Positions 1,585 to 63,159 of a stretch of 64,000 nt of DNA are shown in pieces. This DNA is from Escherichia coli (GTDB lineage Bacteria; Pseudomonadota; Gammaproteobacteria; Enterobacterales; Enterobacteriaceae), in the NCBI RefSeq assembly GCF_003790525.1, contig NZ_CP033635.1. One strand, given 5' to 3'. The notes beneath the pieces are model-generated. The model did no database searches, was not told the origin of the DNA, and saw nothing but the letters and a program-made list of their open reading frames with translations. The translations under genes were made by a program, and so were the position numbers. How positions within the stretch are numbered: position 1 is the first letter of the stretch; the number at the start of each line of letters is the position of its first letter.

Positions 1585-1769
1585 AGCGTCCCGCTGAAAT
1601 CTTCGGCTTACCTCCTTTCGCCCTGTATGCAGTCTATCGCTGACTTGCGGATAAAATAGTTTCAAGTGTGATTATTGCGTAACGCCTCGCAAAGAATATT
1701 TGCTGGCAGGATCGCAGACTGCAAAGCCTGCGGATTGACAATCTGACCGTGAAGGCATACTTTCAGGAG

Positions 1770-2140: not shown

Positions 2141-3388
2141 ATGAAAGGCAGTTATAAATCCCGTTGGGTAATCGTAATCGTGGTGGTTATCGCCGCCATC
2201 GCCGCATTCTGGTTCTGGCAAGGCCGCAATGACTCCCAGAGTGCAGCCCCAGGGGCGACGAAACAAGCGCAGCAATCGCCAGCGGGTGGTCGCCGTGGTA
2301 TGCGTTCCGGCCCATTAGCCCCGGTTCAGGCGGCGACCGCCGTAGAACAGGCAGTTCCGCGTTACCTCACCGGGCTTGGCACCATTACCGCTGCTAACAC
2401 CGTTACGGTGCGCAGCCGCGTAGATGGTCAGTTGATGGCGTTACATTTCCAGGAAGGCCAGCAGGTCAAAGCAGGCGATTTACTGGCAGAAATTGACCCC
2501 AGCCAGTTCAAAGTTGCATTAGCACAAGCCCAGGGCCAACTGGCAAAAGATAAAGCCACGCTTGCCAACGCCCGCCGTGACCTGGCGCGTTATCAACAAC
2601 TGGTAAAAACCAATCTCGTATCTCGTCAGGAACTGGATGCCCAACAAGCGCTGGTCAGTGAAACCGAAGGCACCATTAAGGCTGATGAAGCAAGCGTCGC
2701 CAGCGCACAGCTGCAACTCGACTGGAGCCGCATCACCGCACCAGTCGATGGTCGCGTTGGTCTCAAGCAGGTTGATGTTGGTAACCAAATCTCCAGTGGT
2801 GATACCACCGGAATTGTGGTGATCACCCAGACGCATCCTATCGATTTGCTCTTTACCCTGCCGGAAAGCGATATCGCTACCGTTGTGCAGGCGCAAAAAG
2901 CCGGAAAACCGCTGGTGGTAGAAGCCTGGGATCGCACCAACTCGAAGAAATTAAGTGAAGGCACGCTGTTAAGTCTCGATAACCAAATCGATGCCACTAC
3001 CGGTACGATTAAAGTGAAAGCACGCTTTAATAATCAGGATGATGCGCTGTTTCCCAATCAGTTTGTTAACGCGCGCATGTTAGTCGACACCGAACAAAAC
3101 GCCGTAGTGATCCCAACAGCCGCCCTGCAAATGGGCAATGAAGGCCATTTTGTCTGGGTACTGAATAGCGAAAACAAGGTCAGCAAACATCTGGTGACGC
3201 CGGGCATTCAGGACAGTCAGAAAGTGGTGATCCGCGCAGGTATTTCTGCGGGCGATCGCGTGGTGACAGACGGCATTGATCGCCTGACCGAAGGGGCGAA
3301 AGTGGAAGTGGTGGAAGCCCAGAGCGCCACCACTCCGGAAGAGAAAGCCACCAGCCGCGAATACGCGAAAAAAGGAGCACGCTCCTGA
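2141..3388 (+). CDS. mdtA: RND efflux membrane fusion protein MdtA (415 aa)
   Basis: ORF 1994-3388 trimmed to ATG at 2141 ([14 protein letters not shown]...); periplasmic adaptor-like sequence; stop overlaps the mdtB start (TGATG). Confidence 0.9.
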
Positions 3389-47086: not shown

Positions 47087-48715
47087 AAATTCCTAAAGTT
47101 GTTTTCTTGCGATTTTGTCTCTCTCTAACCCGCATAAATACTGGTAGCATCTGCATTCAACTGGATAAAATTACAGGGATGCAGAATGAGACACTTTATC
47201 TATCAGGACGAAAAATCACATAAATTCAGGGCAGTTGAGCAACAGGGAAACGAGTTGCATATCAGTTGGGGAAAAGTTGGCACCAAAGGGCAAAGCCAGA
47301 TAAAAAGTTTTTCAGATGCTGCGGCAGCGGCAAAAGCGGAGCTTAAGCTGATTGCGGAGAAGGTGAAGAAGGGGTATGTGGAGCAAGCGAAGGATAATTC
47401 TTTGCAACCTTCCCAAACGGTAACGGGCTCTCTCAAGGTAGCGGACTTATCCACCATTATTCAGGAACAACCCTCTTTCGTAGCAGAAACCCGTGCGCCT
47501 GACAAAAATACAGATGCTGTTTTACCGTGGCTGGCGAAAGATATTGCTGTCGTTTTTCCGCCCGAAGTTGTACACACCACGTTAAGTCATCGCCGCTTTC
47601 CCGGAGTTCCTGTTCAGCAAGCAGACAAATTGCCCCAATTACGTCGCTTAGCCTGTAGTGTGTCGCAACGGGATAATAAAACAGCCACATTTGACTTCAG
47701 CGCCTGTTCTTTAGAATGGCAAAACACCGTCGCCCAGGCGATCAGTCAGATCGACGGCCTGAAAACAACACAGTTACCATCACCAGTAATGGCTGTACTC
47801 ACGGCACTTGAAATGAAATGCACAAGATATAAAGTGCGTGAGGATGTTATGGATCAGATCGTCCAGGAAGGCGGTCTGGAATATGCTACTGATGTAATAA
47901 TACACCTTCAACAGATTGATATTGAATGGGATTATGCGAATAATGTCATTATTATTCTGCCGTCTGGCATTGCACCTAGCTACTTGGAGCAATATTCCAG
48001 ATTTGAATGACGCCTACGTAAACATTTATCACTGACGGAAGAGTCTCTCTGGCAAAAATGTGCACAAAAACTTATTGCCGCAATTCCACATATTCCAGAA
48101 TGGCGGCAACCATTAATTGCTTTGTTATTACCCGAAAAACCAGAAATTGCACATGAAATTGCCCAGCGTCTACTGGGGCAAAAAAAATTACCCTCGCTTG
48201 AGTGGTTAAAAATAGTGGCGACTGATGAGCACATTCTTGCCTCATTAGAAAAATATCACGAACCATATGCCATTTTTGATGATTACTATTGTGGTGCGAT
48301 ATGGTCAGCCACCGTATTACAGGAGCAAGGTGTTGCAGCCCTGCCCCGATTTGCTCCCTATGCCGCAAGTGACTACTGCGCCGATGTGTTGCGTCATATC
48401 AATCATCCGTTCGCATTGACACTGCTTATACGTGTAGCCGGGCAAACTAAACGCTGTCACGATCGGATGACGAAAGCCATTGCTGCGTTCCCACATGCAG
48501 CAATGGCGGCACTGACGGAACTTCTTGGGCAAAAAGAAGAGAACAGTTGGCGCATTATGCTAATGACAATGCTTATCTCACAACCAGCACTGGCAGAACA
48601 GGTCATTCCCTGGCTCTCGACACCCGCAGTTGCCGTACTGAAATCATGCCAGCAACAACTGACACAGCCCTCAAACCATGCCAGCGCCGATCTACTGCCA
48701 GCCGTAGTAGTCTCC

Positions 48716-50054
48716 CATAAGCGCTAACTTAAGGGTTGTGGTATTACGCCTGATATGATTTAACGTGCCGATGAATTACTCTCACGATAACTGGTCAGCA
48801 ATTCTGGCCCATATTGGTAAGCCCGAAGAACTGGATACTTCGGCACGTAATGCCGGGGCTCTAACCCGCCGCCGCGAAATTCGTGATGCTGCAACTCTGC
48901 TACGTCTGGGGCTGGCTTACGGCCCCGGGGGGATGTCATTACGTGAAGTCACTGCATGGGCTCAGCTCCATGACGTTGCAACATTATCTGACGTGGCTCT
49001 CCTGAAGCGGCTGCGGAATGCCGCCGACTGGTTTGGCATACTTGCCGCACAAACACTTGCTGTACGCGCCGCAGTTACGGGTTGTACAAGCGGAAAGAGA
49101 TTGCGTCTTGTCGATGGAACAGCAATCAGTGCGCCCGGGGGCGGCAGCGCTGAATGGCGACTACATATGGGATATGATCCTCATACCTGTCAGTTCACTG
49201 ATTTTGAGCTAACCGACAGCAGAGACGCTGAACGGCTGGACCGATTTGCGCAAACGGCAGACGAGATACGCATTGCTGACCGGGGATTCGGTTCGCGTCC
49301 CGAATGTATCCGCTCACTTGCTTTTGGAGAAGCTGATTATATCGTCCGGGTTCACTGGCGAGGATTGCGCTGGTTAACTGCAGAAGGAATGCGCTTTGAC
49401 ATGATGGGTTTTCTGCGCGGGCTGGATTGCGGTAAGAACGGTGAAACCACTGTAATGATAGGCAATTCAGGTAATAAAAAAGCCGGAGCTCCCTTTCCGG
49501 CACGTCTCATTGCCGTATCACTTCCTCCCGAAAAAGCATTAATCAGTAAAACCCGACTGCTCAGCGAGAATCGTCGAAAAGGACGAGTAGTTCAGGCGGA
49601 AACGCTGGAAGCAGCGGGCCATGTGCTATTGCTAACATCATTACCGGAAGATGAATATTCAGCAGAGCAAGTGGCTGATTGTTACCGTCTGCGATGGCAA
49701 ATTGAACTGGCTTTTAAGCGGCTCAAAAGTTTGCTGCACCTGGATGCTTTGCGTGCAAAGGAACCTGAACTCGCGAAAGCGTGGATATTTGCTAATCTAC
49801 TCGCCGCATTTTTAATTGACGACATAATCCAGCCATCGCTGGATTTCCCCCCCAGAAGTGCCGGATCCGAAAAGAAGAACTAACTCGTTGTGGAGAATAA
49901 CAAAAATGGTCATCTGGAGCTTACAGGTGGCCATTCGTGGGACAGTATCCCTGACAGCCTACAAAACGCAATTGAAGAACGCGAGGCATCGTCTTAACGA
50001 GGCACCGAGGCGTCGCATTCTTCAGATGGTTCAACCCTTAAGTTAGCGCTTATG
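48716..50054 (+). mobile_element. IS186 (IS4 family), about 1339 bp, with perfect 23-bp terminal inverted repeats and 10-bp target-site duplication
   Basis: Left end CATAAGCGCTAACTTAAGGGTTG (48716-48738), right end CAACCCTTAAGTTAGCGCTTATG (50032-50054); direct repeats AGTAGTCTCC at 48706-48715 and 50055-50064. Confidence 0.9.
48771..49883 (+). CDS. IS186 transposase (DDE, IS4 family; about 370 aa)
   Basis: MNYSHDNWSAILAHIGKPEELDTSARNAGALTRRREIRDAATLLRLGLAYGPGG..., the IS186 transposase as remembered; the ORF track starts two codons earlier at GTG 48765. Confidence 0.85.
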   Translation: MNYSHDNWSAILAHIGKPEELDTSARNAGALTRRREIRDAATLLRLGLAYGPGGMSLREVTAWAQLHDVATLSDVALLKRLRNAADWFGILAAQTLAVRAAVTGCTSGKRLRLVDGTAISAPGGGSAEWRLHMGYDPHTCQFTDFELTDSRDAERLDRFAQTADEIRIADRGFGSRPECIRSLAFGEADYIVRVHWRGLRWLTAEGMRFDMMGFLRGLDCGKNGETTVMIGNSGNKKAGAPFPARLIAVSLPPEKALISKTRLLSENRRKGRVVQAETLEAAGHVLLLTSLPEDEYSAEQVADCYRLRWQIELAFKRLKSLLHLDALRAKEPELAKAWIFANLLAAFLIDDIIQPSLDFPPRSAGSEKKN

Positions 50055-52338
50055 AGTAGTCTCCCCTCCCTGGCTTTCGAAAAAGAAAAAATCGCCGATT
50101 CCGGTGCTGGATTTAGCGCCATTAGGCATTGAGCCAATCTGTTATCTGACAGAAGAAATCAGTAATCAACTTTTGGCGAAATATATCTGGTATTCAAAAC
50201 ACATCACGGTTAGCCATGAAGAAAGTACTACCAACCTGTTGGCAAGGATGGGTTTTCAACGACGGATCGCTGGTACATATATTAAAGCTCCCGAAGCGGT
50301 AGTTGAGGCATGGCTAAATGAAGATTATTCAACCTTACTAAGTGAATTTAAGGTGTTTCATTCACCTACCGGGCATTATTGGCAGTTGGGGATTTTGACA
50401 ACATTGCCGCTGGAGAAAGCAGTAAAAGCATGGAATGCCCTTACCCTATCTCCACATACCGATACCGAATACTCCATGTTACATTTTGGACTCAAAGGGT
50501 TACCTGGGTTAGTAAACTCACTTGCACGCTATCCACAAGAAGCCTTGCCCATCACGAATTACTTCGCAGCGAGTGAGCTGGCTCCTGCCGTCGCCCGTGC
50601 CTTCAACAAACTGAAAACGCTACGCGAAAACGCCCGTAGCTGGCTGTTGAAATACCCGGAACATGCCCTTACCGGCCTGCTGCCTGCGGCGCTCGGCAAA
50701 GCCGGTGAAGCACAGGATAACGCCCGCGCTGCCTTGCGTATGCTTACCGAAAACGGTCATCAGCCATTACTGCAAGAAATCGCCCGACGTTATAACCAGC
50801 CGGAAGTAACCGATGCGGTGAACGCTCTGCTTGCGCTCGATCCCTTAGATAATCACCCGACAAAAATCCCCACTCTTCCGGCCTTTTATCAGCCATCGCT
50901 CTGGACGCGCCCGGTATTAAAAGCAAATGCCCAATCACTGCCAGATAGCGCCCTCCTCCACCTCGGTGAAATGCTCCGCTTCCCTCAGGAAGAGGCTCTG
51001 TATCCGGGATTATTGCAGGTGAAAGACGTCTGTTCCGCCGACTCACTGGCGGGATTTGCCTGGGATCTGTTTACCGCCTGGCAGACCGCTGGCGCGCCGT
51101 CGAAAGAGAGTTGGGCGTTCACTGCGTTAGGCGTTCTCGGTAACGATGACACCGCCCGCAAACTGACGCCATTAATACGCGCCTGGCCTGGTGAATCCCA
51201 GCATAAACGCGCCACCGTTGGGTTGGATATTCTCGCTGCTATCGGTAGTGATATCGCCCTTATGCAGCTTAACGGCATCGCCCAGAAACTGAAATTCAAA
51301 GCATTACAGGAGCGGGCAAAAGAAAAAATTGCCGACATTGCCGAGAGCCGCGAACTCACGGTGGCGGAGCTTGAAGATCGGTTAGCACCGGATCTCGGTC
51401 TGGATGATAACGGTTCGCTGCTGCTGGATTTTGGCCCACGGCAGTTCACCGTCAGCTTTGATGAAACCTTAAAACCGTTTGTGCGTGATGTTTCCGGCAG
51501 CCGCCTGAAAGACCTGCCCAAACCGAACAAAAGCGATGATGAAACGCGGGCGAACGATGCGGTTAACCGCTACAAATTGCTGAAAAAAGATGCGCGTACC
51601 ATCGCCGCCCAGCAGGTAGCAAGGCTGGAATCCGCCATGTGCCTGCGCCGCCGCTGGTCGCTGGAAAACTTCCAGCTCTTCCTGGTTGAGCATCCGCTGG
51701 TTCGTCACTTAACCCGCCGTCTGATTTGGGGCGTTTATAGCGCCGAAAACCAGCTACTGGCTTGCTTTCGCGTAGCAGAAGATAACAGCTCCAGCACCGC
51801 TGACGATGATCTTTTCACCCTGCCGGAAGGCGATATCTCTATCGGCACTCCTCACGTTCTGGAAATATCACCAACGGATGCTGCCGCCTTTGGTCAGCTT
51901 TTTGCCGACTACGAACTGCTACCACCGTTCCGCCAGCTCGACCGTAACAGCTACGCCCTGACAGAAGCCGAGCGCAATGCCAGTGAACTGACCCGCTGGG
52001 CAGGCAGAAAATGCCCGAGTGGTCGGGTCATGGGGCTGGCGAATAAAGGCTGGATAAAGGGCGAACCACAGGATGGAGGCTGGATCGGATGGATGATCAA
52101 ACCTTTGGGTCGCTGGTCGTTAATCATGGAAATCGATGAAGGCTTTGCGGTAGGCATGTCGCCAGCCGAACTCAGCGCTGAGCAGCTCTTAAGCAAGCTG
52201 TGGCTATGGGAAGGCAAAGCAGAAAGATATGGCTGGGGGAGTAATTCAACACAGGAAGCGCAGTTCTCCGTAATCGATGCCATCACCGCCAGCGAGCTAA
52301 TTAACGATATTGAAGCCCTGTTTGAATAAGGAAAGAGC

Positions 52339-55300
52339 ATGGACAAGGAATTACCGTGGCTGGCGGATAACGCCCAACTGGAACTGAAATATAAAAAAGG
52401 CAAAACGCCGCTCAGTCATCGTCGCTGGCCGGGCGAACCAGTGTCCGTTATCACTGGAAGTCTCATCCAGACATTGGGTGATGAATTGCTACAAAAAGCT
52501 GAGAAGAAAAAAAACATTGTCTGGCGTTATGAGAATTTTTCACTGGAGTGGCAGTCCGCCATCACGCAGGCCATCAACTTGATCGGCGAACACAAACCCT
52601 CAATCCCGGCCCGGACAATGGCGGCGCTAGCCTGTATCGCGCAAAATGACAGCCAACAGTTGCTCGACGAAATCGTCCAACAAGAGGGGCTGGAATATGC
52701 GACTGAGGTGGTGATTGCACGCCAGTTTATTGCGCGGTGTTATGAGAGTGATCCTCTGGTAGTGACATTGCAGTATCAGGACGAGGATTATGGCTATGGT
52801 TATCGCTCAGAAACCTATAACGAATTCGATCTCCGACTGCGTAAGCATCTCTCTCTGGCAGAGGAAAGCTGCTGGCAGCGTTGCGCCGACAAACTCATTG
52901 CCGCACTACCAGGAATAACCAAAGTTCGCCGCCCTTTTATTGCGCTGATCCTCCCGGAAAAACCAGAAATAGCCAATGAGTTGGTAGGCCTTGAATGCCC
53001 GCGAACTCATTTTCATTCTAAGGAGTGGTTAAAAGTTGTTGCTAATGACCCCACAGCGGTGAGAAAACTCGAACACTACTGGAGCCAGGATATATTTAGC
53101 GATCGAGAAGCCAGCTACATGTCGCATGAAAACCACTTCGGCTACGCGGCCTGCGCCGCCCTTTTGCGCGAACAAGGACTGGCAGCCATTCCGCGCCTCG
53201 CGATGTATGCCCATAAAGAAGATTGCGGCAGTCTGCTGGTACAAATTAACCATCCGCAAGTCATCCGCACCTTGCTACTGGTGGCTGATAAAAACAAACC
53301 CAGCCTGCAACGTGTAGCTAAATACCATAAAAACTTCCCCCATGCGACGCTCGCCGCACTGGCAGAACTGCTGGCGTTAACAGAACCACCAGCCCGCCCT
53401 GGTTATCCAATCATCGAAGACAAAAAGCTGCCTGCACAGCAAAAAGCACGCGATGAATACTGGCGTACGCTGTTACAAACGCTGATGGCATCGCAGCCAC
53501 AACTGGCAGCAGAAGTGATGCCGTGGTTAAGTACTCAACCCCAGTCAGTGCTGAAGAGTTATTTATCGGCACCGCCCAAACCGGTTATTGATGGCACCGA
53601 TAACAGCAATCTGCCAGAAATCCTCGTTTCACCACCGTGGCGTAGTAAGAAAAAAATGACAGCTCCACGTCTTGATTTGGCACCGCTCGAATTAACTCCG
53701 CAAGTTTACTGGCAACCAGGCGAACAAGAGAGGCTTGCCGCCACTGAGCCTGCCCGTTATTTCAGCACGGAATCTCTTGCGCAACGCATGGAACAAAAAA
53801 GTGGACGAGTTGTATTACAGGAACTGGGTTTTGGGGATGATGTATGGCTGTTTCTGAATTATATACTCCCCGGAAAACTGGATGCTGCACGCAATTCACT
53901 CTTGTTCAGTGGCATTACTACCAGGGGCGGGTTGAAGAGATCCTGAATGGCTGGAACTCCCCGGAAGCACAATTAGCAGAACAGGCGCTCCGCAGCGGTC
54001 ACATAGAAGCGTTAATTAACATATGGGAAAATGACAACTACTCACATTATCGTCCGGAAAAGAGTGTCTGGAACCTGTATTTATTGGCACAGTTGCCGCG
54101 TGAGATGGCTTTGACCTTCTGGCTGCGTATCAATGAGAAAAAGCATCTGTTCGCGGGTGAGGACTATTTTCTCAGTATCCTCGGATTGGATGCGCTACCA
54201 GGTCTGCTGTTGGCTTTTTCACATCGTCCAAAAGAAACATTTCCGTTAATTTTAAATTTTGGCGCAACAGAACTGGCGCTGCCTGTTGCCCACGTCTGGC
54301 GACGTTTCGCGGCGCAGCGTGATCTGGCTCGCCAGTGGATTTTACAATGGCCGGAACATACGGCTAGTGCACTTATCCCTCTTGTCTTTACCAAACCCAG
54401 CGATAATAGCGAAGCCGCATTACTTGCCCTGCGTTTACTGTACGAACAGGGACATGGCGAATTGCTACAAACCGTGGCAAACCGCTGGCAGCGTACAGAT
54501 GTATGGTCTGCCCTGGAGCAGTTGCTTAAACAGGGTCCAATGGACATTTACCCGGCACGCATTCCAAAAGCCCCTGATTTCTGGCATCCGCAAATGTGGT
54601 CCAGGCCGCGCCTTATCACTAATAATCAAACTGTTACCAATGACGCTCTGGAAATTATCGGCGAAATGCTGCGCTTTACCCAGGGGGGACGTTTTTATAG
54701 CGGGCTGGAACAACTGAAAACGTTCTGCCAGCCACAAACGCTGGCAGCTTTTGCCTGGGATCTCTTCACTGCGTGGCAACAAGCTGGTGCCCCCGCAAAA
54801 GACAACTGGGCATTTCTGGCGTTAAGTCTCTTTGGTGACGAAAGCACGGCACGGGATCTGACGACACAGATCCTCGCCTGGCCACAAGAAGGCAAATCTG
54901 CCCGTGCTGTCAGCGGCCTGAACATCCTTACCCTGATGAATAATGATATGGCGCTGATACAGCTGCATCATATATCGCAACGGGCTAAATCCCGCCCCTT
55001 ACGTGATAACGCGGCGGAATTTCTTCAGGTGGTCGCAGAAAATCGCGGGCTAAGCCAGGAAGAGCTAGCGGACAGATTAGTCCCAACCCTGGGCCTTGAT
55101 GATCCGCAGGCGTTGAGTTTTGATTTTGGTCCCCGGCAGTTTACCGTTCGCTTCGATGAAAATCTCAACCCGGTTATCTTTGATCAGCAAAACGTTCGCC
55201 AGAAAAGCGTTCCCCGTTTGCGCGCCGATGACGATCAACTGAAAGCGCCCGAGGCACTGGCCCGACTAAAAGGGCTAAAAAAAGATGCTACTCAGGTGAG

Positions 55301-55970
55301 CAAAAACCTGCTCCCGCGTCTTGAAACGGCCCTACGTACCACCCGACGCTGGTCGCTGGCAGATTTTCATTCTCTGTTTGTTAATCATCCCTTTACCCGT
55401 CTGGTTACCCAGCGATTAATATGGGGGGTTTATCCGGCAAATGAACCGCGTTGTTTACTCAAAGCCTTTCGTGTGGCCGCAGAGGGGGAGTTCTGCAATG
55501 CGCAAGATGAGCCAATTGACCTGCCTGCGGACGCTCTGATTGGCATTGCCCACCCGTTAGAAATGACAGCAGAAATGCGCAGTGAATTTGCACAGCTTTT
55601 TGCCGATTACGAAATTATGCCGCCTTTTCGCCAGTTGTCGCGCCGCACGGTGCTGCTCACACCTGACGAGTCAACCAGTAACAGCCTGACTCGCTGGGAA
55701 GGTAAATCCGCTACCGTTGGGCAACTTATGGGAATGCGATACAAAGGCTGGGAGTCAGGCTATGAGGACGCATTTGTCTATAACCTGGGTGAGTACCGGC
55801 TGGTCCTTAAGTTTTCACCCGGTTTTAACCACTACAATGTTGATAGCAAAGCGCTAATGAGCTTCCGTTCTCTTCGAGTGTACCGTGACAATAAATCCGT
55901 CACTTTTGCCGAACTTGATGTGTTTGATTTGAGTGAGGCGTTAAGCGCACCTGACGTCATTTTCCATTAA
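52339..55970 (+). pseudogene. yehI: yehI-like DUF4132 large protein gene with an apparent -1 frameshift inside 53844-53946
   Basis: Two overlapping ORFs (52339-53946 in frame 1, 53844-55970 in frame 0); total span 3632 nt is one nt short of an intact 1210-codon gene; both halves are colinear with the molR paralog. Confidence 0.7.
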
Positions 55971-56030: not shown

Positions 56031-56348
56031 ATGATCGTGCAAAAAGAGCTGGTTGCTATTTACGATTATGAGGTCCCTGTACCTGAAGATCCGTTTTCCT
56101 TCAGACTTGAGATCCATAAATGCTCTGAATTATTTACAGGTTCCGTCTATCGACTGGAGCGATTCCGGCTACGTCCAACATTTCATCAACGTGATCGAGA
56201 AGATGCTGACCCGCTAATAAATGATGCGTTGATTTATATAAGAGATGAGTGTATTGATGAGCGGAAATTACGAGGTGAATCACCTGAAACTGTAATAGCA
56301 ATTTTTAATCGTGAACTACAGAATATATTCAACCAAGAAATAGAATAA
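56031..56348 (+). CDS. yehK: Small uncharacterized protein YehK (105 aa)
   Basis: 105-aa ORF with no recognizable domain, followed by an intrinsic terminator. Confidence 0.7.
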   Translation: MIVQKELVAIYDYEVPVPEDPFSFRLEIHKCSELFTGSVYRLERFRLRPTFHQRDREDADPLINDALIYIRDECIDERKLRGESPETVIAIFNRELQNIFNQEIE

Positions 56349-56516
56349 TATACTCTAAATAATTCAAATTGGTCCGATCCGGCGCAACGTCCCAATGGCC
56401 TGGATTATAAATCTCATTATCTTAATTGCAACGGGGTCCAGCCGTGGTTATAATTCGTTCGTTGGAACACGATGTTGCACAGGCTGTGGTGTTAGGCCTG
56501 AAAATAGTAAATAAAA

Positions 56517-56546
56517 GAACCTGCCTCACCAGCAGGTTTTTTTATT
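56517..56546 (+). terminator. Intrinsic terminator downstream of yehK
   Basis: CCTGC-CTCACCA-GCAGG followed by TTTTTTT. Confidence 0.75.
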
Positions 56547-56654
56547 TACTGTGATCTGCTTTCCAGATATTTTTCGCTCAAACAACTAATGCGCCAAACA
56601 TTTATTGCGCGTAAAATATCGTTTATTTCATTAATACATTTCAGGGATGAATAT

Positions 56655-57743
56655 ATGTCACCGCAGAATAATCATCTGCAGCGTCCGCCTGCTGCTGTGT
56701 TATACGCCGATGAACTGGCAAAATTAAAACAAAATGATAACGCACCTTGCCCGCCCGGTTGGCAGTTAAGTTTGCCTGCGGCCCGTGCTTTTATCCTTGG
56801 CGACGAAGCGCAAAATATCAGCCGTAAAGTGGTGATTAGCCCCTCCGCTGTCGAACGTATGTTAGTCACTCTTGCTACCGGCCGCGGTTTGATGTTGGTG
56901 GGGGAACCGGGTACCGCAAAATCTCTTCTTTCTGAATTACTGGCAACCGCTATTAGCGGCGATGCCGGGTTAACCATCCAGGGCGGGGCATCTACCACCG
57001 AAGATCAAATCAAGTATGGCTGGAACTACGCCCTGCTTATCAATCATGGTCCGTCAACGGAAGCGCTGGTCCCTGCCCCGCTTTATCAGGAAATGCGCGA
57101 CGGCAAAATCGTCCGTTTCGAAGAGATAACGCGTACACCGCTGGAAGTGCAGGACTGTCTGTTAGGTATGCTTTCTGACAGGGTGATGACGGTGCCGGAA
57201 CTCACTGGTGAAGCCAGTCAGCTCTATGCGCGAGAAGGCTTTAATATTATTGCCACTGCCAATACCCGCGATCGCGGCGTCAATGAAATGAGTGCTGCGC
57301 TAAAGCGTCGCTTCGATTTTGAAACGGTTTTTCCGATTATGGATTTCGCCCAGGAGTTGGAACTGGTCGCCAGTGCTTCGGCGCGTTTGCTGGCCCATAG
57401 CGGTATTCCGCATAAAGTGCCTGACGCGGTACTGGAATTACTGGTCCGCACCTTCCGCGATCTGCGTGCCAACGGCGAAAAGAAAACGTCAATGGATACA
57501 CTGACAGCGATTATGTCCACCGCTGAAGCCGTGAACGTGGCCCATGCTGTGGGCGTCCGCGCCTGGTTTTTAGCGAATCGCGCGGGGGAGCCTGCCGACC
57601 TGGTGGAATGTATTGCCGGAACCATCGTCAAAGATAACGAAGAAGATCGCGCGCGTCTGCGCCGTTACTTCGAACAGCGTGTCGCCACACATAAAGAAGC
57701 TCACTGGCAGGCTTATTATCAAGCCCGCCACCGCCTGCCGTGA
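56655..57743 (+). CDS. yehL: MoxR-like AAA+ ATPase YehL (362 aa)
   Basis: ORF 56589-57743 trimmed to ATG at 56655 (MSPQNNHLQRP...); Walker A GEPGTAKS, Walker B-like FNIIATAN. Confidence 0.85.
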   Translation: MSPQNNHLQRPPAAVLYADELAKLKQNDNAPCPPGWQLSLPAARAFILGDEAQNISRKVVISPSAVERMLVTLATGRGLMLVGEPGTAKSLLSELLATAISGDAGLTIQGGASTTEDQIKYGWNYALLINHGPSTEALVPAPLYQEMRDGKIVRFEEITRTPLEVQDCLLGMLSDRVMTVPELTGEASQLYAREGFNIIATANTRDRGVNEMSAALKRRFDFETVFPIMDFAQELELVASASARLLAHSGIPHKVPDAVLELLVRTFRDLRANGEKKTSMDTLTAIMSTAEAVNVAHAVGVRAWFLANRAGEPADLVECIAGTIVKDNEEDRARLRRYFEQRVATHKEAHWQAYYQARHRLP

Positions 57744-57753
57744 GGAAAGATGC

Positions 57754-60033
57754 ATGAGCGAGCCGTTAATTGTCGGCATCCGGCATCATAGTCCGGCCTG
57801 CGCCCGGCTGGTGAAATCGTTAATCGAAAGCCAGCGGCCACGATACGTGTTGATTGAAGGCCCGGCTGATTTTAATGACCGGGTAGACGAACTGTTTTTA
57901 GCCCACCAGCTTCCGGTAGCTATTTACAGTTATTGCCAGTATCAGGACGGTGCAGCCCCCGGGCGTGGTGCCTGGACGCCATTTGCTGAATTTTCGCCGG
58001 AGTGGCAGGCGCTACAAGCCGCACGTCGCATTCAGGCACAAACTTACTTCATCGATTTGCCTTGCTGGGCGCAGAGTGAAGAAGAGGACGATTCGCCTGA
58101 TACGCAAGATGAAAGCCAGGCCTTACTGCTGCGTGCCACCCGCATGGATAACAGCGATACCCTGTGGGATCACTTGTTCGAAGATGAAAGCCAGCAAACT
58201 GCATTACCCTCTGCGCTGGCGCACTATTTTGCCCAACTGCGGGGCGACGCCTCCGGCGATGCGCTCAATCGTCAGCGCGAAGCCTTTATGGCCCGCTGGA
58301 TTGGATGGGCGATGCAGCAAAATAATGGCGACGTGTTAGTTGTCTGCGGTGGCTGGCACGCTCCGGCACTGGCAAAGATGTGGCGCGAATGCCCTCAGAA
58401 AATTAACAAGCCAGAATTGCCCTCGCTGGCAGATGCCGTTACAGGTTGTTATCTCACACCCTACAGTGAAAAGCGCCTTGATGTGCTGGCAGGATACCTT
58501 TCAGGAATGCCTGCCCCGGTATGGCAAAACTGGTGCTGGCAGTGGGGCTTGCAGAAGGCCGGTGAACAACTGCTAAAAACTATCCTTACCCGTTTGCGCC
58601 AGCACAAATTGCCCGCTTCTACCGCGGATATGGCTGCCGCTCATCTGCATGCGATGGCGCTGGCACAGTTGCGCGGTCATACACTACCGTTACGCACTGA
58701 CTGGCTGGATGCCATAGCAGGCTCGCTGATTAAAGAAGCCCTGAACGCGCCGTTGCCGTGGAGCTATCGCGGCGTTATTCATCCCGATACCGATCCGATT
58801 CTGCTAACGTTGATAGACACATTAGCGGGTGACGGATTCGGTAAACTTGCCCCTTCTACGCCACAACCGCCTCTGCCAAAAGATGTCACCTGCGAACTGG
58901 AACGTACCGCAATCTCCCTTCCGGCGGAGCTTACCTTAAATCGCTTTACCCCCGATGGGCTGGCGCAAAGTCAGGTGTTACATCGGCTGGCAATACTGGA
59001 GATCCCTGGGATTGTACGCCAGCAGGGAAGTACACTGACACTTGCAGGCAACGGTGAAGAACGCTGGAAATTAACCCGCCCGCTTAGCCAGCATGCGGCA
59101 TTGATTGAGGCCGCCTGTTTTGGTGCCACACTCCAGGAAGCCGCACGCAATAAATTAGAAGCCGATATGCTGGACGCGGGCGGAATCGGCAGTATCACCA
59201 CATGTCTTAGCCAGGCGGCGTTAGCGGGTCTGGCGTCCTTCAGTCAACAATTACTGGAGCAACTCACACTATTAATCGCCCAGGAAAATCAATTTGCCGA
59301 AATGGGCCAGGCGCTGGAAGTGCTTTATGCCTTATGGCGGCTGGATGAAATTAGCGGTATGCAAGGCGCGCAGATATTACAAACGACGTTATGCGCGACT
59401 ATCGATCGCACGCTGTGGCTGTGTGAATCTAACGGCAGACCGGATGAAAAGGAGTTTCACGCTCACCTGCATAGCTGGCAAGCGCTTTGCCATATTCTGC
59501 GCGATCTACATAGCGGCGTTAATTTACCCGGCGTTTCTCTTTCTGCGGCGGTAGCCTTACTGGAGCGACGCAGTCAGGCAATTCATGCCCCGGCGCTGGA
59601 TCGCGGCGCGGCTCTTGGCGCACTAATGCGTCTGGAACATCCCAACGCCAGTGCCGAAGCGGCGCTGACGATGCTGGCGCAGTTATCCCCGGCACAATCT
59701 GGTGAGGCGCTGCACGGTTTGCTGGCGCTGGCCCGCCATCAACTGGCCTGTCAGCCGGCATTTATCGCCGGTTTCAGCAGTCATTTAAATCAACTGAGTG
59801 AAGCCGATTTTATTAACGCCCTGCCCGATTTACGCGCGGCGATGGCCTGGCTACCACCACTAGAACGCGGGACGCTGGCGCATCAGGTGCTTGAGCATTA
59901 TCAACTGGCGCAACTTCCCGTTTCGGCGCTGCAAATGCCGTTGCATTGTCCACCACAGGCCATTGCACATCATCAACAACTCGAACAGCAGGCACTGGCA
60001 TCGCTGCAAAACTGGGGAGTTTTCCATGTCTGA
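57754..60033 (+). CDS. yehM: Large uncharacterized protein YehM (759 aa)
   Basis: ORF 57613-60033 trimmed to ATG at 57754 after GAGGAAAG, 10 bp after the yehL stop; no motif I can name. Confidence 0.8.
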   Translation: MSEPLIVGIRHHSPACARLVKSLIESQRPRYVLIEGPADFNDRVDELFLAHQLPVAIYSYCQYQDGAAPGRGAWTPFAEFSPEWQALQAARRIQAQTYFIDLPCWAQSEEEDDSPDTQDESQALLLRATRMDNSDTLWDHLFEDESQQTALPSALAHYFAQLRGDASGDALNRQREAFMARWIGWAMQQNNGDVLVVCGGWHAPALAKMWRECPQKINKPELPSLADAVTGCYLTPYSEKRLDVLAGYLSGMPAPVWQNWCWQWGLQKAGEQLLKTILTRLRQHKLPASTADMAAAHLHAMALAQLRGHTLPLRTDWLDAIAGSLIKEALNAPLPWSYRGVIHPDTDPILLTLIDTLAGDGFGKLAPSTPQPPLPKDVTCELERTAISLPAELTLNRFTPDGLAQSQVLHRLAILEIPGIVRQQGSTLTLAGNGEERWKLTRPLSQHAALIEAACFGATLQEAARNKLEADMLDAGGIGSITTCLSQAALAGLASFSQQLLEQLTLLIAQENQFAEMGQALEVLYALWRLDEISGMQGAQILQTTLCATIDRTLWLCESNGRPDEKEFHAHLHSWQALCHILRDLHSGVNLPGVSLSAAVALLERRSQAIHAPALDRGAALGALMRLEHPNASAEAALTMLAQLSPAQSGEALHGLLALARHQLACQPAFIAGFSSHLNQLSEADFINALPDLRAAMAWLPPLERGTLAHQVLEHYQLAQLPVSALQMPLHCPPQAIAHHQQLEQQALASLQNWGVFHV

Positions 60034-61162
60034 ACTGAACGATCTTCTGACCACCCGTGAGCTACAACGCTGGCGATTAATTCTTGGCGAAGCGGCAGAA
60101 ACGACGCTTTGTGGGCTGGATGACAACGCCCGGCAGATAGACCACGCGCTGGAGTGGCTGTATGGGCGCGATCCTGAACGGCTCCAGCGTGGTGAACGTT
60201 CCGGTGGATTAGGTGGCTCAAATCTCACCACCCCTGAGTGGATCAACAGTATTCACACGCTGTTTCCGCAGCAGGTGATTGAGCGGCTGGAAAGCGATGC
60301 CGTGCTGCGCTACGGCATTGAAGATGTGGTGACGAATCTCGACGTGCTGGAACGTATGCAGCCTTCTGAAAGCCTGCTACGCGCTGTTTTGCACACCAAA
60401 CATCTGATGAACCCCGAAGTACTGGCTGCCGCCCGCCGGATAGTGTGCCAGGTTGTTGAAGAAATTATGGCTCGACTGGCAAAGGAAGTTCGTCAGGCTT
60501 TTTCTGGTGTCCGCGATCGCCGTCGCCGTTCATTTATTCCACTGGCGCGAAACTTTGATTTCAAAAGTACTCTGCGCGCCAACCTGCAACACTGGCACCC
60601 GCAACACGGCAAGTTGTATATCGAATCCCCCCGCTTTAACAGCCGCATTAAACGCCAAAGCGAACAATGGCAACTGGTCTTACTGGTTGATCAAAGCGGA
60701 TCGATGGTTGACTCGGTGATCCACTCTGCGGTGATGGCGGCCTGTTTATGGCAGTTACCCGGCATTCGTACCCATCTGGTGGCGTTTGACACCAGCGTCG
60801 TTGATCTCACGGCAGACGTTGCTGATCCGGTAGAGTTATTAATGAAAGTACAACTGGGCGGCGGGACCAATATCGCCAGTGCCGTGGAGTATGGTCGGCA
60901 ACTTATTGAACAACCAGCAAAAAGCGTCATTATCCTCGTGAGCGATTTCTATGAAGGGGGTTCATCATCATTGCTGACGCATCAGGTGAAAAAGTGTGTC
61001 CAGAGCGGCGTCAAAGTGCTGGGACTGGCGGCGCTCGATAGCACCGCAACACCTTGCTATGACCGCGATATGGCCCAGGCGCTGGTTAATGTCGGCGCAC
61101 AAATAGCTGCCATGACACCGGGCGAACTGGCGGCCTGGCTTGCGGAGAATCTTCAGTCATGA
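60026..61162 (+). CDS. yehP: vWA-domain protein YehP (378 aa)
   Basis: ORF 59891-61162 trimmed to ATG at 60026 (MSELNDLLTT...), overlapping the yehM stop by 8 nt; MIDAS motif LVDQSGSM. Confidence 0.85.
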   Translation: MSELNDLLTTRELQRWRLILGEAAETTLCGLDDNARQIDHALEWLYGRDPERLQRGERSGGLGGSNLTTPEWINSIHTLFPQQVIERLESDAVLRYGIEDVVTNLDVLERMQPSESLLRAVLHTKHLMNPEVLAAARRIVCQVVEEIMARLAKEVRQAFSGVRDRRRRSFIPLARNFDFKSTLRANLQHWHPQHGKLYIESPRFNSRIKRQSEQWQLVLLVDQSGSMVDSVIHSAVMAACLWQLPGIRTHLVAFDTSVVDLTADVADPVELLMKVQLGGGTNIASAVEYGRQLIEQPAKSVIILVSDFYEGGSSSLLTHQVKKCVQSGVKVLGLAALDSTATPCYDRDMAQALVNVGAQIAAMTPGELAAWLAENLQS

Positions 61163-63159
61163 ATTCACTACGTCCGGAATTATTAGAACTGACGCCGCAG
61201 GCCCTGACGGCGTTAAGCAATGCCGGTTTTGTTAAACGCAGTCTTAAGGAACTGGAAAATGGCAACGTCCCGGAAATCAGCCATAAGAACGGCGCTTTAA
61301 TCGCCACCTTCAGTGACGGTGTCCGTACCCAGCTGGCGAACGGTCAGGCACTGAAAGAGGCTCAATGCAGCTGCGGGGCCAACGGTATGTGCCGTCATCG
61401 CGTGATGCTGGTGTTAAGTTATCAACGACTTTGTGCCACCACTCAGTCTACGGAAAAAGAAGAAGAGTGGGATCCGGCAATCTGGCTGGAAGAACTGGCT
61501 ACCCTTCCCGATGCTACCCGCAAACGCGCACAGGCGCTGGTCGCTAAAGGCATCACCATTGAGTTGTTCTGTGCGCCGGGTGAAATTCCCTCTGCCCGCT
61601 TACCGATGAGCGATGTGCGTTTTTATTCCCGCAGCAGTATTCGTTTCGCCCGTTGTGATTGTATTGAAGGCACACTTTGCGAACATGTCGTACTGGCGGT
61701 ACAGGCCTTCGTCGAGGCCAAAGCGCAGCAAGTAGAATTTAACCATTTAATCTGGCAGATGCGCAGCGAACACGTCACATCATCTGACGATCCGTTTGCC
61801 AGCGAAGAAGGCAACGCGTGTCGTCAATATGTTCAGCAATTAAGCCAGACATTATGGCTTGGCGGCATCAGCCAGCCGCTCATCCATTACGAGGCAGCAT
61901 TCAACCGCGCATTGCAGGCGGCAGAGACCTGCAACTGGCGCTGGGTGAGTGAATCGCTACGGCAACTGCGCGCCAGCGTTGATGCCTTCCACGCCCGCGC
62001 CAGCCACTATAATGCCGGAGAATGCTTACATCAGCTTGCGGCATTAAACAGTCGATTAAATTGCGCACAAGAGATGGCCCGGCGCGACAGTATTGGTGAA
62101 GTTCCTCCTGTGCCGTGGCGCACGGTCGTTGGCTCTGGCATTGCCGGAGAAGCAAAGCTTGATCATCTGCGGCTGGTGTCTTTAGGTATGCGTTGCTGGC
62201 AGGATATTGAGCATTATGGTTTACGCATCTGGTTTACCGATCCCGACACCGGCAGTATTTTGCACCTTTCGCGCAGTTGGCCGCGAAGTGAACAGGAAAA
62301 CTCACCGGCAGCTACGCGTCGGCTGTTTAGTTTTCAGGCTGGCGCACTGGCGGGCGGGCAAATTGTTTCACAAGCAGCAAAACGCAGTGCCGATGGCGAG
62401 CTGCTGTTAGCTACCCGCAACCGCTTAAGCAGCGTTGTGCCGCTGTCGCCTGATGCCTGGCAAATGTTGAGCGCGCCGTTACGCCAGCCGGGCATTGTGG
62501 CTTTGCGGGAATATTTACGCCAGCGTCCCCCCGCCTGCATACGGCCTCTTAATCAGGTCGATAACTTATTTATTCTGCCGGTCGCTGAGTGTATTTCGCT
62601 CGGTTGGGACAGCAGCCGCCAGACGCTGGATGCGCAGGTCATTAGCGGCGAAGGGGAAGATAATGTGCTGACGTTATCATTACCAGCCTCAGCCAGCGCA
62701 CCTTATGCCGTTGAACGCATGGCGGCGCTTTTGCAACAAACAGACGACCCCGTGTGTCTGGTTTCTGGCTTTGTCAGTTTTGTTGAAGGGCAATTGACAC
62801 TGGAACCACGGGTGATGATGACAAAAACCCGTGCCTGGGCGCTGGACGCAGAAACTACGCCTGTGGCACCGCTACCTTCTGCCAGCGTTTTGCCTGTGCC
62901 GTCTACTGCTCATCAGTTGCTGATACGCTGCCAGGCGTTACTTATTCAACTGCTCCATAACGGCTGGCACTATCAGGAACAGAGTGCTATTGGTCAGGCA
63001 GAGTTGCTGGCGAATGACCTCACCGCGGTGGGTTTTTATCGGCTGGCACATGTGTTGGGACAATTTCGTAATACAGAAAGCGAGGCACGGGTAGAAGCAA
63101 TGAATAACGGTGTTTTGCTTTGCGAACAATTATTCCCCATGCTTCAGCAACAAGGATGA
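61159..63159 (+). CDS. yehQ: SWIM zinc-finger-like protein YehQ (666-aa ORF)
   Basis: Start overlaps the yehP stop (ATGA); two CxC...CxH motifs (CSCGANGMCRHRV and CDCIEGTLCEHVV) typical of SWIM fingers. Confidence 0.8.
   Translation: MNSLRPELLELTPQALTALSNAGFVKRSLKELENGNVPEISHKNGALIATFSDGVRTQLANGQALKEAQCSCGANGMCRHRVMLVLSYQRLCATTQSTEKEEEWDPAIWLEELATLPDATRKRAQALVAKGITIELFCAPGEIPSARLPMSDVRFYSRSSIRFARCDCIEGTLCEHVVLAVQAFVEAKAQQVEFNHLIWQMRSEHVTSSDDPFASEEGNACRQYVQQLSQTLWLGGISQPLIHYEAAFNRALQAAETCNWRWVSESLRQLRASVDAFHARASHYNAGECLHQLAALNSRLNCAQEMARRDSIGEVPPVPWRTVVGSGIAGEAKLDHLRLVSLGMRCWQDIEHYGLRIWFTDPDTGSILHLSRSWPRSEQENSPAATRRLFSFQAGALAGGQIVSQAAKRSADGELLLATRNRLSSVVPLSPDAWQMLSAPLRQPGIVALREYLRQRPPACIRPLNQVDNLFILPVAECISLGWDSSRQTLDAQVISGEGEDNVLTLSLPASASAPYAVERMAALLQQTDDPVCLVSGFVSFVEGQLTLEPRVMMTKTRAWALDAETTPVAPLPSASVLPVPSTAHQLLIRCQALLIQLLHNGWHYQEQSAIGQAELLANDLTAVGFYRLAHVLGQFRNTESEARVEAMNNGVLLCEQLFPMLQQQG

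Follow-up and report, generated by a model that had tools for sequence, protein, structure and literature searches.

A conserved five-component MoxR-vWA unit of yehLMPQ and DUF4132 genes in Escherichia coli and other bacteria, with a predicted TIKI-type hydrolase

Introduction

Which of the genes around yehL in Escherichia coli belong together, and what might they do as a set? We addressed this question in a stretch of 64,000 nucleotides from E. coli (NCBI RefSeq assembly GCF_003790525.1, contig NZ_CP033635.1), referred to as the window, in which a first-pass annotation had marked positions 56,031 to 63,159 as a candidate multi-protein system driven by nucleoside triphosphates, running from yehK through yehL, yehM, yehP and yehQ and lying beside two paralogous genes that carry the DUF4132 domain. 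This 7.1-kb interval is E. coli chromosome and has a match in 5401 of the 5426 complete genomes of the species, where it is annotated as yehK, yehL, yehM, yehP and yehQ. Together with the DUF4132 genes molR and yehI, yehLMPQ accounts for about 14 kb of chromosome in E. coli and is found in nearly every strain, and the unit is conserved in four phyla; our literature searches turned up no functional study of the yehLMPQ system. The genes, their domain labels and the YehL subfamily are already known, YehL being one of seven named subfamilies of MoxR ATPases and the second MoxR protein of E. coli K-12 (PMC3893208). We find that the conserved unit consists of five components, DUF4132, YehL, YehM, YehP and YehQ, that yehK lies outside it, and that YehM probably carries a TIKI-type hydrolase domain. 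Tentatively, we propose that a MoxR-vWA remodelling pair gates this hydrolase and that the system is deployed after DNA damage.

Results

The conserved unit comprises YehL, YehM, YehP, YehQ and DUF4132

The four coupled genes described in the first-pass annotation are real and correspond to those annotated in E. coli as yehL, yehM, yehP and yehQ. In the window they are placed as follows:

56655-57743, plus strand: yehL, MoxR-class AAA+ ATPase (Pfam AAA_5, YehL subfamily)
57754-60033, plus strand: yehM, DUF5682 protein with a predicted N-terminal TIKI/TraB-like hydrolase-type domain (about residues 1-240) and a C-terminal helical solenoid
60026-61162, plus strand: yehP, CoxE-type vWA protein with a complete metal ion-dependent adhesion site (MIDAS)
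61159-63159, plus strand: yehQ, SWIM zinc-finger protein with about 480 amino acids beyond the fingers

The junctions are as tight as had been described, with a 10-bp gap between yehL and yehM, an 8-nt overlap of yehM and yehP, and an ATGA overlap of yehP and yehQ. The open reading frame (ORF) starting at 56589 is an over-extension of yehL, whose gene start is at 56655. All four ORFs are full length in the window, with every catalytic residue intact.

To place these genes in a wider context, we assembled 80 loci with YehM relatives, taking one genome per species, and added four others, for a total of 84 loci, which we annotated with profiles that were seeded with the E. coli and Klebsiella proteins and then iterated. 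Represented in the sample are Gamma- and Betaproteobacteria, Myxococcota, Actinobacteria and Acidobacteriota. The same L-M-P-Q order and tight spacing recurs across them: YehL, YehM and YehP are found in 83-84 of the 84 loci, YehQ in about 75, and one to three DUF4132 genes in about 75, nearly always directly upstream and on the same strand. In Burkholderia the order is LMPQ-D, with DUF4132 directly downstream. Estimated median gaps are 15 bp for L-M, 14 bp for M-P, 2 bp for P-Q and 66 bp for the step from DUF4132 to yehL, and in some Actinobacteria the DUF4132 stop codon overlaps the predicted start of the yehL ORF. No other family was conserved within 5 kb, the largest ORF cluster being present in 10 of 82 loci. 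Furthermore, independent gene calls with precomputed Pfam annotation agree on this context in Variovorax, Serratia and Klebsiella. Thus the conserved unit is made up of five components, DUF4132, L, M, P and Q. Judged from gene neighbourhoods, the DUF4132 genes would be a fifth obligatory component and not mere neighbours. The earlier proposal of one NTP-driven multi-protein system is thus strongly supported by gene order, spacing, essentially invariant catalytic motifs and natural YehM-YehP fusions, but its boundaries were wrong, with yehK to be left out and DUF4132 to be taken in.

Conserved domains and predicted active sites

We next examined the proteins themselves. The Pfam profiles AAA_5 and VWA_CoxE confirmed the assignments of YehL and YehP that had been made from short motifs, and the SWIM profile gave a weak match in YehQ. 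YehL matches AAA_5 at 7.9e-35, in agreement with the GEPGTAKS motif already recognised in it, and its match to the Pfam family bpMoxR is marginal (0.0024). It carries the full set of MoxR AAA+ motifs, since Walker A (GEPGTAKS), the acidic Walker B (RFEEITR), the sensor-1 Asn N203 and the Arg finger R218/R219 are each conserved in all 84 homologues. A gene for a vWA partner lies in the same operon, yehP being two genes 3' of yehL in 83 of the 84 loci. Among proteins of known structure, those nearest to YehL in sequence are the AAA modules of midasin and the MoxR protein 2r44. As a separate observation, the Walker B motif (window positions about 57111-57131) has a Glu-Glu pair that is invariant in the 84 homologues, where the usual form is Asp-Glu; this FEE-type Walker B may be characteristic of the YehL subfamily.

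YehP matches Pfam VWA_CoxE at 2e-72, which confirms the vWA domain suggested by its DQSGSM motif. The MIDAS pattern DxSxS…T…D is complete, with D222, S224, S226, T281 and D307 kept in 81-82 of 82 homologues, and there is additionally a weak match to a cobaltochelatase subunit. Inside yehP, positions 60884-60899 of the window hold an exact copy of the 16-nt cassette GTGGAGTATGGTCGGC, which has been reported to be prone to +1 frameshifting in reporter assays (PMC2790909); frameshifting at GTGGAGTATGGTCGGC would cut YehP short before the last MIDAS Asp (D307).

YehQ had been described as having two SWIM-like zinc fingers. Both CxCx5CxH signatures are present, but only the first is conserved: finger 1 (C70, C72, C78, H80), which has the SWIM signature CxCxnCxH, is kept in 72 of 73 homologues, while finger 2 (C166-H176) is kept in 33 of 73 and is lineage-specific. 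The Pfam SWIM matches are weak (1.3e-3 and 0.21). Besides SWIM, no further Pfam domain was found in 29 YehQ members, nor in 120 homologues by profile search, and sequence and profile searches of the PDB gave no meaningful relative of YehQ with a solved structure. Profile-profile comparison detected no homology, and hence no common domain, between YehQ and DUF4132 or between YehM and DUF4132.

YehM had been described as a protein without recognisable motif, which does not hold: it matches Pfam DUF5682 at 8e-98 and has a TIKI/TraB-type fold. In its AlphaFold2 model, whose mean predicted local distance difference test (pLDDT) score is 92.9, the N-terminal domain is predicted to adopt a fold of the TIKI/TraB/ChaN/erythromycin-esterase type, and the remaining approximately 500 residues form a helical solenoid. 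The model has the alpha/beta fold with a parallel beta-sheet core that is common to TraB, ChaN, Ere, HopBA1 and RRSP, and the haem-binding protein ChaN is its second-best structural match. In an alignment of 67 diverse YehM homologues, R10, H11, E35, H51, E83, D101, G199, G200 and H202 are invariant, as are R163 and R175. The motifs are G8-x-x-H11, E35 and G199-x-x-H202, that is, two GxxH elements and a Glu, with G8 taken from the window and consensus sequences only, and these residues fall within or just after the predicted beta-strands 5-9, 31-37 and 194-199. This pattern agrees with the motif defined for the TIKI superfamily, whose His/Glu active site lies near the core beta-strands (PMC6254334). 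Thus, by its sequence YehM would have both the catalytic His/Glu residues of TIKI proteins and a conserved basic residue. We conclude that fold and motif probably predict a hydrolase activity, peptidase or esterase, and that H11, E35 and H202 are the probable catalytic candidates. Natural full-length fusions of YehM and YehP were found in distant lineages (P0229, P0261, P0168).

The DUF4132 domain is present in all 51 DUF4132 proteins tested, and an N-terminal WGR domain in 32 of these 51. The proteins are about 1200-1400 amino acids long; their C-terminal 400 residues or so are the most conserved, with invariant Asp, His, Arg and Glu. Klebsiella YehI was modelled as an alpha-solenoid (pLDDT 85.9), and fold searches with this model gave generic HEAT-like matches plus a single small alpha/beta domain resembling an uncharacterised protein.

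DNA damage control converges on DUF4132 and WGR proteins

A LexA box stands in front of the first DUF4132 gene:

47161-47176, plus strand: LexA (SOS) box CTGGATAAAATTACAG of molR, 10 bp ahead of its ATG

This box has one mismatch to the CTGT-N8-ACAG type and an AT-rich spacer. We observe the same box upstream of molR in Klebsiella grimontii, and molR is listed among the LexA-regulated genes with a known SOS box (PMC6590174, Table 1). Within the locus, membership of the LexA regulon thus holds for molR only, the box being read in the window and the inducibility taken from the literature. Two members of the DdrO/IrrE regulon of Deinococcus radiodurans, the DUF4132 protein DRA0166 and the WGR protein DR2173, increase after treatment with mitomycin C (PMC8533742). 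Additionally, BglJ-RcsB activates the molR promoter (PMC3950696), and H-NS binds the intergenic region upstream of yehL, with yehL and yehM derepressed in hns/stpA mutants (PMC3686432). Of the roles in stress, envelope or response to invaders that had been suggested for the system, none is shown; the evidence points to DNA damage and not to the envelope, and neither PADLOC nor the few flanks whose genes were read lent support to phage defence.

The label 'molybdate metabolism regulator' carried by MolR was rejected as unsupported. In a different view of the system, yehLMPQ would act as a maturation or cofactor-insertion chaperone like CoxD/CoxE, NorQ/NorD, CbbQ/CbbO or CobS/CobT/CobN, with DUF4132 as the client or substrate-binding subunit and YehM as a metal or tetrapyrrole accessory like ChaN. 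All well-studied MoxR-vWA pairs act in this way, YehP belongs to the CoxE vWA family and has the weak cobaltochelatase-subunit match, ChaN ranks second among the structural matches of YehM, and the invariant His, Asp and Glu of the DUF4132 C-terminal region could bind metal. A set made up of an AAA_5 ATPase, a vWA protein and a protein of about 140 kDa is also reminiscent of CobS-CobT-CobN. However, the DUF4132 model is a generic alpha-solenoid without an enzyme-like fold match, no metabolic-enzyme or cofactor-pathway gene is conserved nearby, and both the LexA/DdrO control and the WGR and SWIM domains would be unexpected for a metabolic maturation factor. Moreover, the molybdate metabolism genes moeA and moeB of Deinococcus are not differentially expressed on DdrO depletion, leaving the molybdate label without support there too. 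We consider a cofactor-inserting role quite improbable.

yehK lies in an AT-rich insert with an orphan antitoxin gene

The first-pass annotation had grouped yehK with yehLMPQ. The gene is not coupled to yehL, as a 306-bp AT-rich spacer with a small RNA (sRNA) gene separates the two:

56031-56348, plus strand: yehK, 105-amino-acid ORF outside the conserved module
56468-56543, plus strand: orphan OrzO-P type I antitoxin sRNA gene (Rfam RF02083, 99.9 bits vs a gathering score of 60)

Among the 84 loci, yehK was found in one, that of E. coli; Klebsiella and Serratia lack it, and in Klebsiella the distance from yehI to yehL is 77 bp. The G+C content is 40% in yehK and 40-42% over yehK and the spacer, vs 53-58% for yehLMPQ. 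No PADLOC or NCBIfam family matches yehK, nor does any of 50,697 phage records. From its distribution and composition, we place yehK outside the conserved system, in AT-rich sequence inserted between yehI and yehL.

The orz gene is preceded by a promoter-like site at 56426-56454. Direct reading of its 3' end gives a plus-strand hairpin followed by a T run, whereas the scan placed a terminator hairpin on the minus strand, at 56538-56518. A zor-orz locus pairs an Orz sRNA with a divergent gene for a 29-amino-acid Zor toxin, whereas the spacer in the window holds one Orz, and no Zor toxin ORF was found in it, which therefore makes this an orphan antitoxin gene. The length of the yehK-yehL spacer differs among E. 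coli strains; in O157:H7 (L085) the same spacer is 1240 bp long and holds two Orz copies together with the 29-codon toxin genes zorO (1659-1748, minus strand) and zorP (2268-2357, minus strand).

A comparable position is occupied in Variovorax, where a 145-amino-acid ORF (L002, 8387-8824) separates the yehL homologue from the DUF4132 gene, with whose stop codon it overlaps. This ORF sits as yehK does in E. coli, has no Pfam or PADLOC match and was not matched when searched with YehK.

Both DUF4132 genes are broken in the window

The upstream DUF4132 paralogues had been taken for intact ORFs of about 1200 amino acids. Upon closer examination, molR and yehI are both disrupted in the window:

47186-52329, plus strand: molR pseudogene (WGR plus DUF4132, paralogue 1), with a stop codon and an insertion sequence (IS)
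48706-50054, plus strand: IS4-family insertion in molR, 1349 bp, IS186-like in size, with a transposase ORF at 48765-49883
52339-55970, plus strand: yehI pseudogene (DUF4132 paralogue 2), with a 1-bp deletion near 53901

A tblastn search with Klebsiella MolR placed residues 1-483 at 47186-48715 and residues 428-1239 at 49891-52326. The premature molR stop, at codon 275, is common to strain TUM9803, otherwise the closest genome, which lacks the IS; the insertion was placed by alignment to TUM9803 molR, and its NCBIfam match transpos_IS4_1 scores 133 bits against a 115-bit cutoff. An N-terminal ORF of 274 codons (47186-48010) keeps the WGR region, with an NCBIfam match over residues 2-78 that coincides in position with WGR in the Klebsiella orthologue, through which the domain was placed. 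Under LexA control, such a WGR-bearing fragment of MolR could thus still be produced and be SOS-induced.

yehI is split into two ORFs (52339-53946 and 53844-55970), and the deletion was placed against the intact yehI of O157:H7. Only 2 of 4208 E. coli records, one of them TUM9803, match a 61-base segment across the deletion at >=99% identity. By this count at most two records would share the deletion, which is thus either very recent or a sequencing error. Among the E. coli records listed none flags yehI as a pseudogene, and the gene is intact in O157:H7. Relative to O157:H7, yehI of the window also has an in-frame 3-bp insertion at 54886-54888.

Disruption of the locus is seen in other strains too. 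O157:H7 F6294 (L086, 154-9901, and L085, from 3889 onward) has three tandem DUF4132 genes, with yehI intact, one gene frameshifted and one with an internal stop; in the same strain yehM is a pseudogene with an internal stop, and several truncated YehM clusters exist in E. coli. O157:H7 thus shows a lineage-specific decay of different parts of the system. In a sublineage of ST131, the blaCTX-M-15 transposon TnMB1860 has integrated in the DUF4132 region beside metG (PMC9334617), which is another sign that this region tolerates disruption.

Because no intact DUF4132 gene remains, the local copy of the system is probably incomplete, and yehLMPQ may have become a decaying relic that is now without function in this strain, an explanation compatible with any of the others. 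The stop and IS insertion in molR and the frameshift in yehI speak for it, as do the yehK/orz insert, which uncouples yehLMPQ from the SOS-controlled promoter, the reported silencing of yehL and yehM by H-NS in K-12, and the yehM lesions just described. The one paper found to name all four yehLMPQ genes concerns DGF-298, a strain with a reduced genome. However, the four LMPQ ORFs of the window have kept their full length and their catalytic residues, the rarity of the yehI deletion and the intact O157:H7 gene point to a very recent event or an error, and the 274-codon MolR fragment could still be produced under LexA control. Loss of function in this strain is possible, in our view, but rather unlikely.

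Chromosomal placement and the question of defence

The patchy distribution of the unit, rich in Actinobacteria and Myxococcota and found in differing genomic contexts, raises the alternative of an anti-phage or conflict system of the 'thresholding' kind, in which DUF4132/WGR proteins would sense an invader, for instance by its DNA ends, the MoxR-vWA pair would act as an ATP-dependent switch and the TIKI-type protease YehM as an effector harming either the cell or the invader. Its logic agrees with that of MoxR-vWA conflict systems (PMC7159879), and TIKI-fold toxins do exist, RRSP and HopBA1 being examples. The copy number of the sensor-like DUF4132 genes varies from 1 to 3 per locus, with the three copies of O157:H7 including two pseudogenes, and pseudogenisation in E. 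coli is frequent. SOS control would also answer prophage induction, and the locus adjoins a type I toxin-antitoxin hotspot.

When compared with known defence systems, though, the yeh genes do not fall among them. No model of PADLOC-DB v2 matches YehK, YehL, YehM, YehP or YehQ, Klebsiella MolR or YehI, or the 145-amino-acid ORF of Variovorax, so that zero catalogued defence families are represented. The ternary conflict systems are defined by VMAP, inactive STAND (iSTAND), FtsH or a vWA-fused beta-propeller together with variable effectors; these four components are absent from our Pfam, NCBIfam and PADLOC scans, there is no variable effector domain, and the partners here are DUF5682, SWIM and DUF4132. 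The site on the chromosome is fixed in the 5401 matching E. coli genomes, unlike typical accessory defence islands. The few flanks that were read hold housekeeping genes (metG, recJ, cytochrome bc1), and no flanking family recurs. Among 72,556 plasmid records the module is present in 39, mostly very large replicons or mislabelled chromosomes, and the 50,697 phage records gave one weak partial match to YehM and no full-length match. We therefore judge a role in conflict unlikely.

Six PHROG families (36295, 30700, 33984, 31592, 29006 and 20839) match YehK, YehM, YehP, YehQ and DUF4132 near-perfectly from end to end, with the YehM match split into two PHROG pieces, as in a yehM pseudogene. A phage origin, considered on account of these matches, was rejected, as the searches of phage records gave nothing comparable, with no match for YehK and only the weak partial one for YehM; the families probably derive from host chromosome within prophage records.

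Discussion

Beyond the membership, gene order, catalytic-residue conservation and fold assignments established above, we tentatively favour the reading in which a MoxR-vWA remodeller gates a TIKI-type hydrolase, with DUF4132 and YehQ as client, receptor or sensor, in a system deployed after DNA damage. By analogy with NorQ/NorD, CbbQ/CbbO and RavA/ViaA, for which the general MoxR/vWA mechanism has been described (PMC9976466), a YehL hexamer would bind YehP, YehP would hold a client protein by an acidic residue through its MIDAS site, and YehL would use ATP hydrolysis to remodel that client. YehM would supply a hydrolytic activity that is controlled or delivered by the YehL-YehP switch, and YehQ together with the DUF4132 solenoids may serve as the client, as a substrate receptor or as a sensor. 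In Enterobacteria, the system would be deployed through the LexA-controlled first DUF4132 gene, and because molR is under LexA control, deployment after DNA damage is the most likely.

Several observations weigh against this reading. On the side of regulation, a LexA box upstream of DUF4132 genes was found, among the 84 loci, in Escherichia and Klebsiella only, with none in the remaining loci of Proteobacteria or in those of Actinobacteria; Cheo-box-like sites in Actinobacteria were not convincing, the GAAC-N4-GTTC sites of Lentzea lying inside coding sequence of related species; the Deinococcus DUF4132 gene may stand apart from any LMPQ set; and in about a third of the loci WGR is lacking on every DUF4132 copy. 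On the side of the enzyme, YehM matches DUF5682 only and not Pfam TraB_PrgY_gumN, so that its TIKI assignment comes from fold and motif; sequence and profile searches of PDB chains with YehM found nothing; and some proteins with a TIKI fold are not enzymes, among them ChaN and PMT, the latter without the motif (PMC6254334). Since yehM and yehP overlap, the M-P fusions could be single-base assembly errors. Finally, literature searches turned up no experiment on the function of any of the five proteins.

A bolder version of a damage-responsive system would be a protein-removal machine. Damaged DNA, or protein caught on such DNA, would be recognised by the WGR-bearing DUF4132 solenoids and the SWIM protein, much as PARP1 detects breaks through its WGR domain; YehL-YehP would be the motor that extracts or unfolds the target, and YehM would cleave it. 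In eukaryotes an AAA+ segregase is paired with a dedicated protease at DNA lesions, and such a machine would be the bacterial equivalent; in a variant of it the trigger would be invading or prophage DNA instead of chromosomal damage. We hold this more specific scheme to be improbable.

Relative to the papers we searched, the definition of the unit by five components, the exclusion of yehK and the TIKI-type DUF5682 domain with its candidate catalytic residues appear to be new, and so does the convergence of LexA and DdrO control on DUF4132/WGR proteins. If deployment of a gated hydrolase after DNA damage holds true, the unit would represent a new class of MoxR-vWA machine in the SOS response and give a bacterial context to the WGR and SWIM domains. 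For experiments, it offers five parts, a probable hydrolase with candidate residues, intact ATPase and MIDAS sites, and an SOS-controlled entry gene. The copy in the window, without an intact DUF4132 gene, would be a poor choice for such work, to which Klebsiella, Serratia or E. coli with an intact yehI gene are better suited.

Comparison with known systems

The ternary conflict systems of Kaur, Burroughs, Iyer and Aravind (2020) resemble the yeh unit in joining a MoxR-vWA couple to conserved proteins that are possible sensors or executors and in their patchy distribution, whereas their four defining third components and their variable effectors are lacking in the yeh system. The terms YehL, YehP, SWIM and WGR are absent from that paper (PMC7159879). 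Compared with the LexA and DdrO/IrrE regulons, the likeness lies in the published SOS box of molR and in the damage-induced DUF4132 and WGR proteins of Deinococcus; it differs in that LexA control is known for no gene of the array but the first and that in E. coli an insert separates off yehLMPQ. Within the TIKI/TraB/PrgY/GumN/ChaN/erythromycin-esterase superfamily, YehM stands apart through the lack of a sequence-level match to Pfam TraB or the PDB, the fusion of its domain to a helical solenoid of about 500 amino acids and its embedding in a MoxR-vWA operon. Midasin/Rea1 likewise combines an AAA_5 motor with a client-gripping MIDAS domain, and its modules are the best solved relatives of YehL; it is, however, a single polypeptide of about 5000 amino acids that works on pre-60S ribosomes, whereas the yeh parts are separate and nothing ties them to ribosome assembly. 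Also close are the MoxR-vWA pairs RavA-ViaA, NorQ-NorD, CbbQ-CbbO and CoxD-CoxE, with which the yeh unit shares an ATPase gene, yehL, two genes upstream of a MIDAS vWA gene in the same tight operon. It differs from them in being a system without a known client enzyme, in the FEE form of its Walker B motif, in the occasional fusion of YehP to YehM and in its three further obligatory partners, the DUF5682/TIKI protein YehM, the SWIM protein YehQ and the DUF4132 solenoids.

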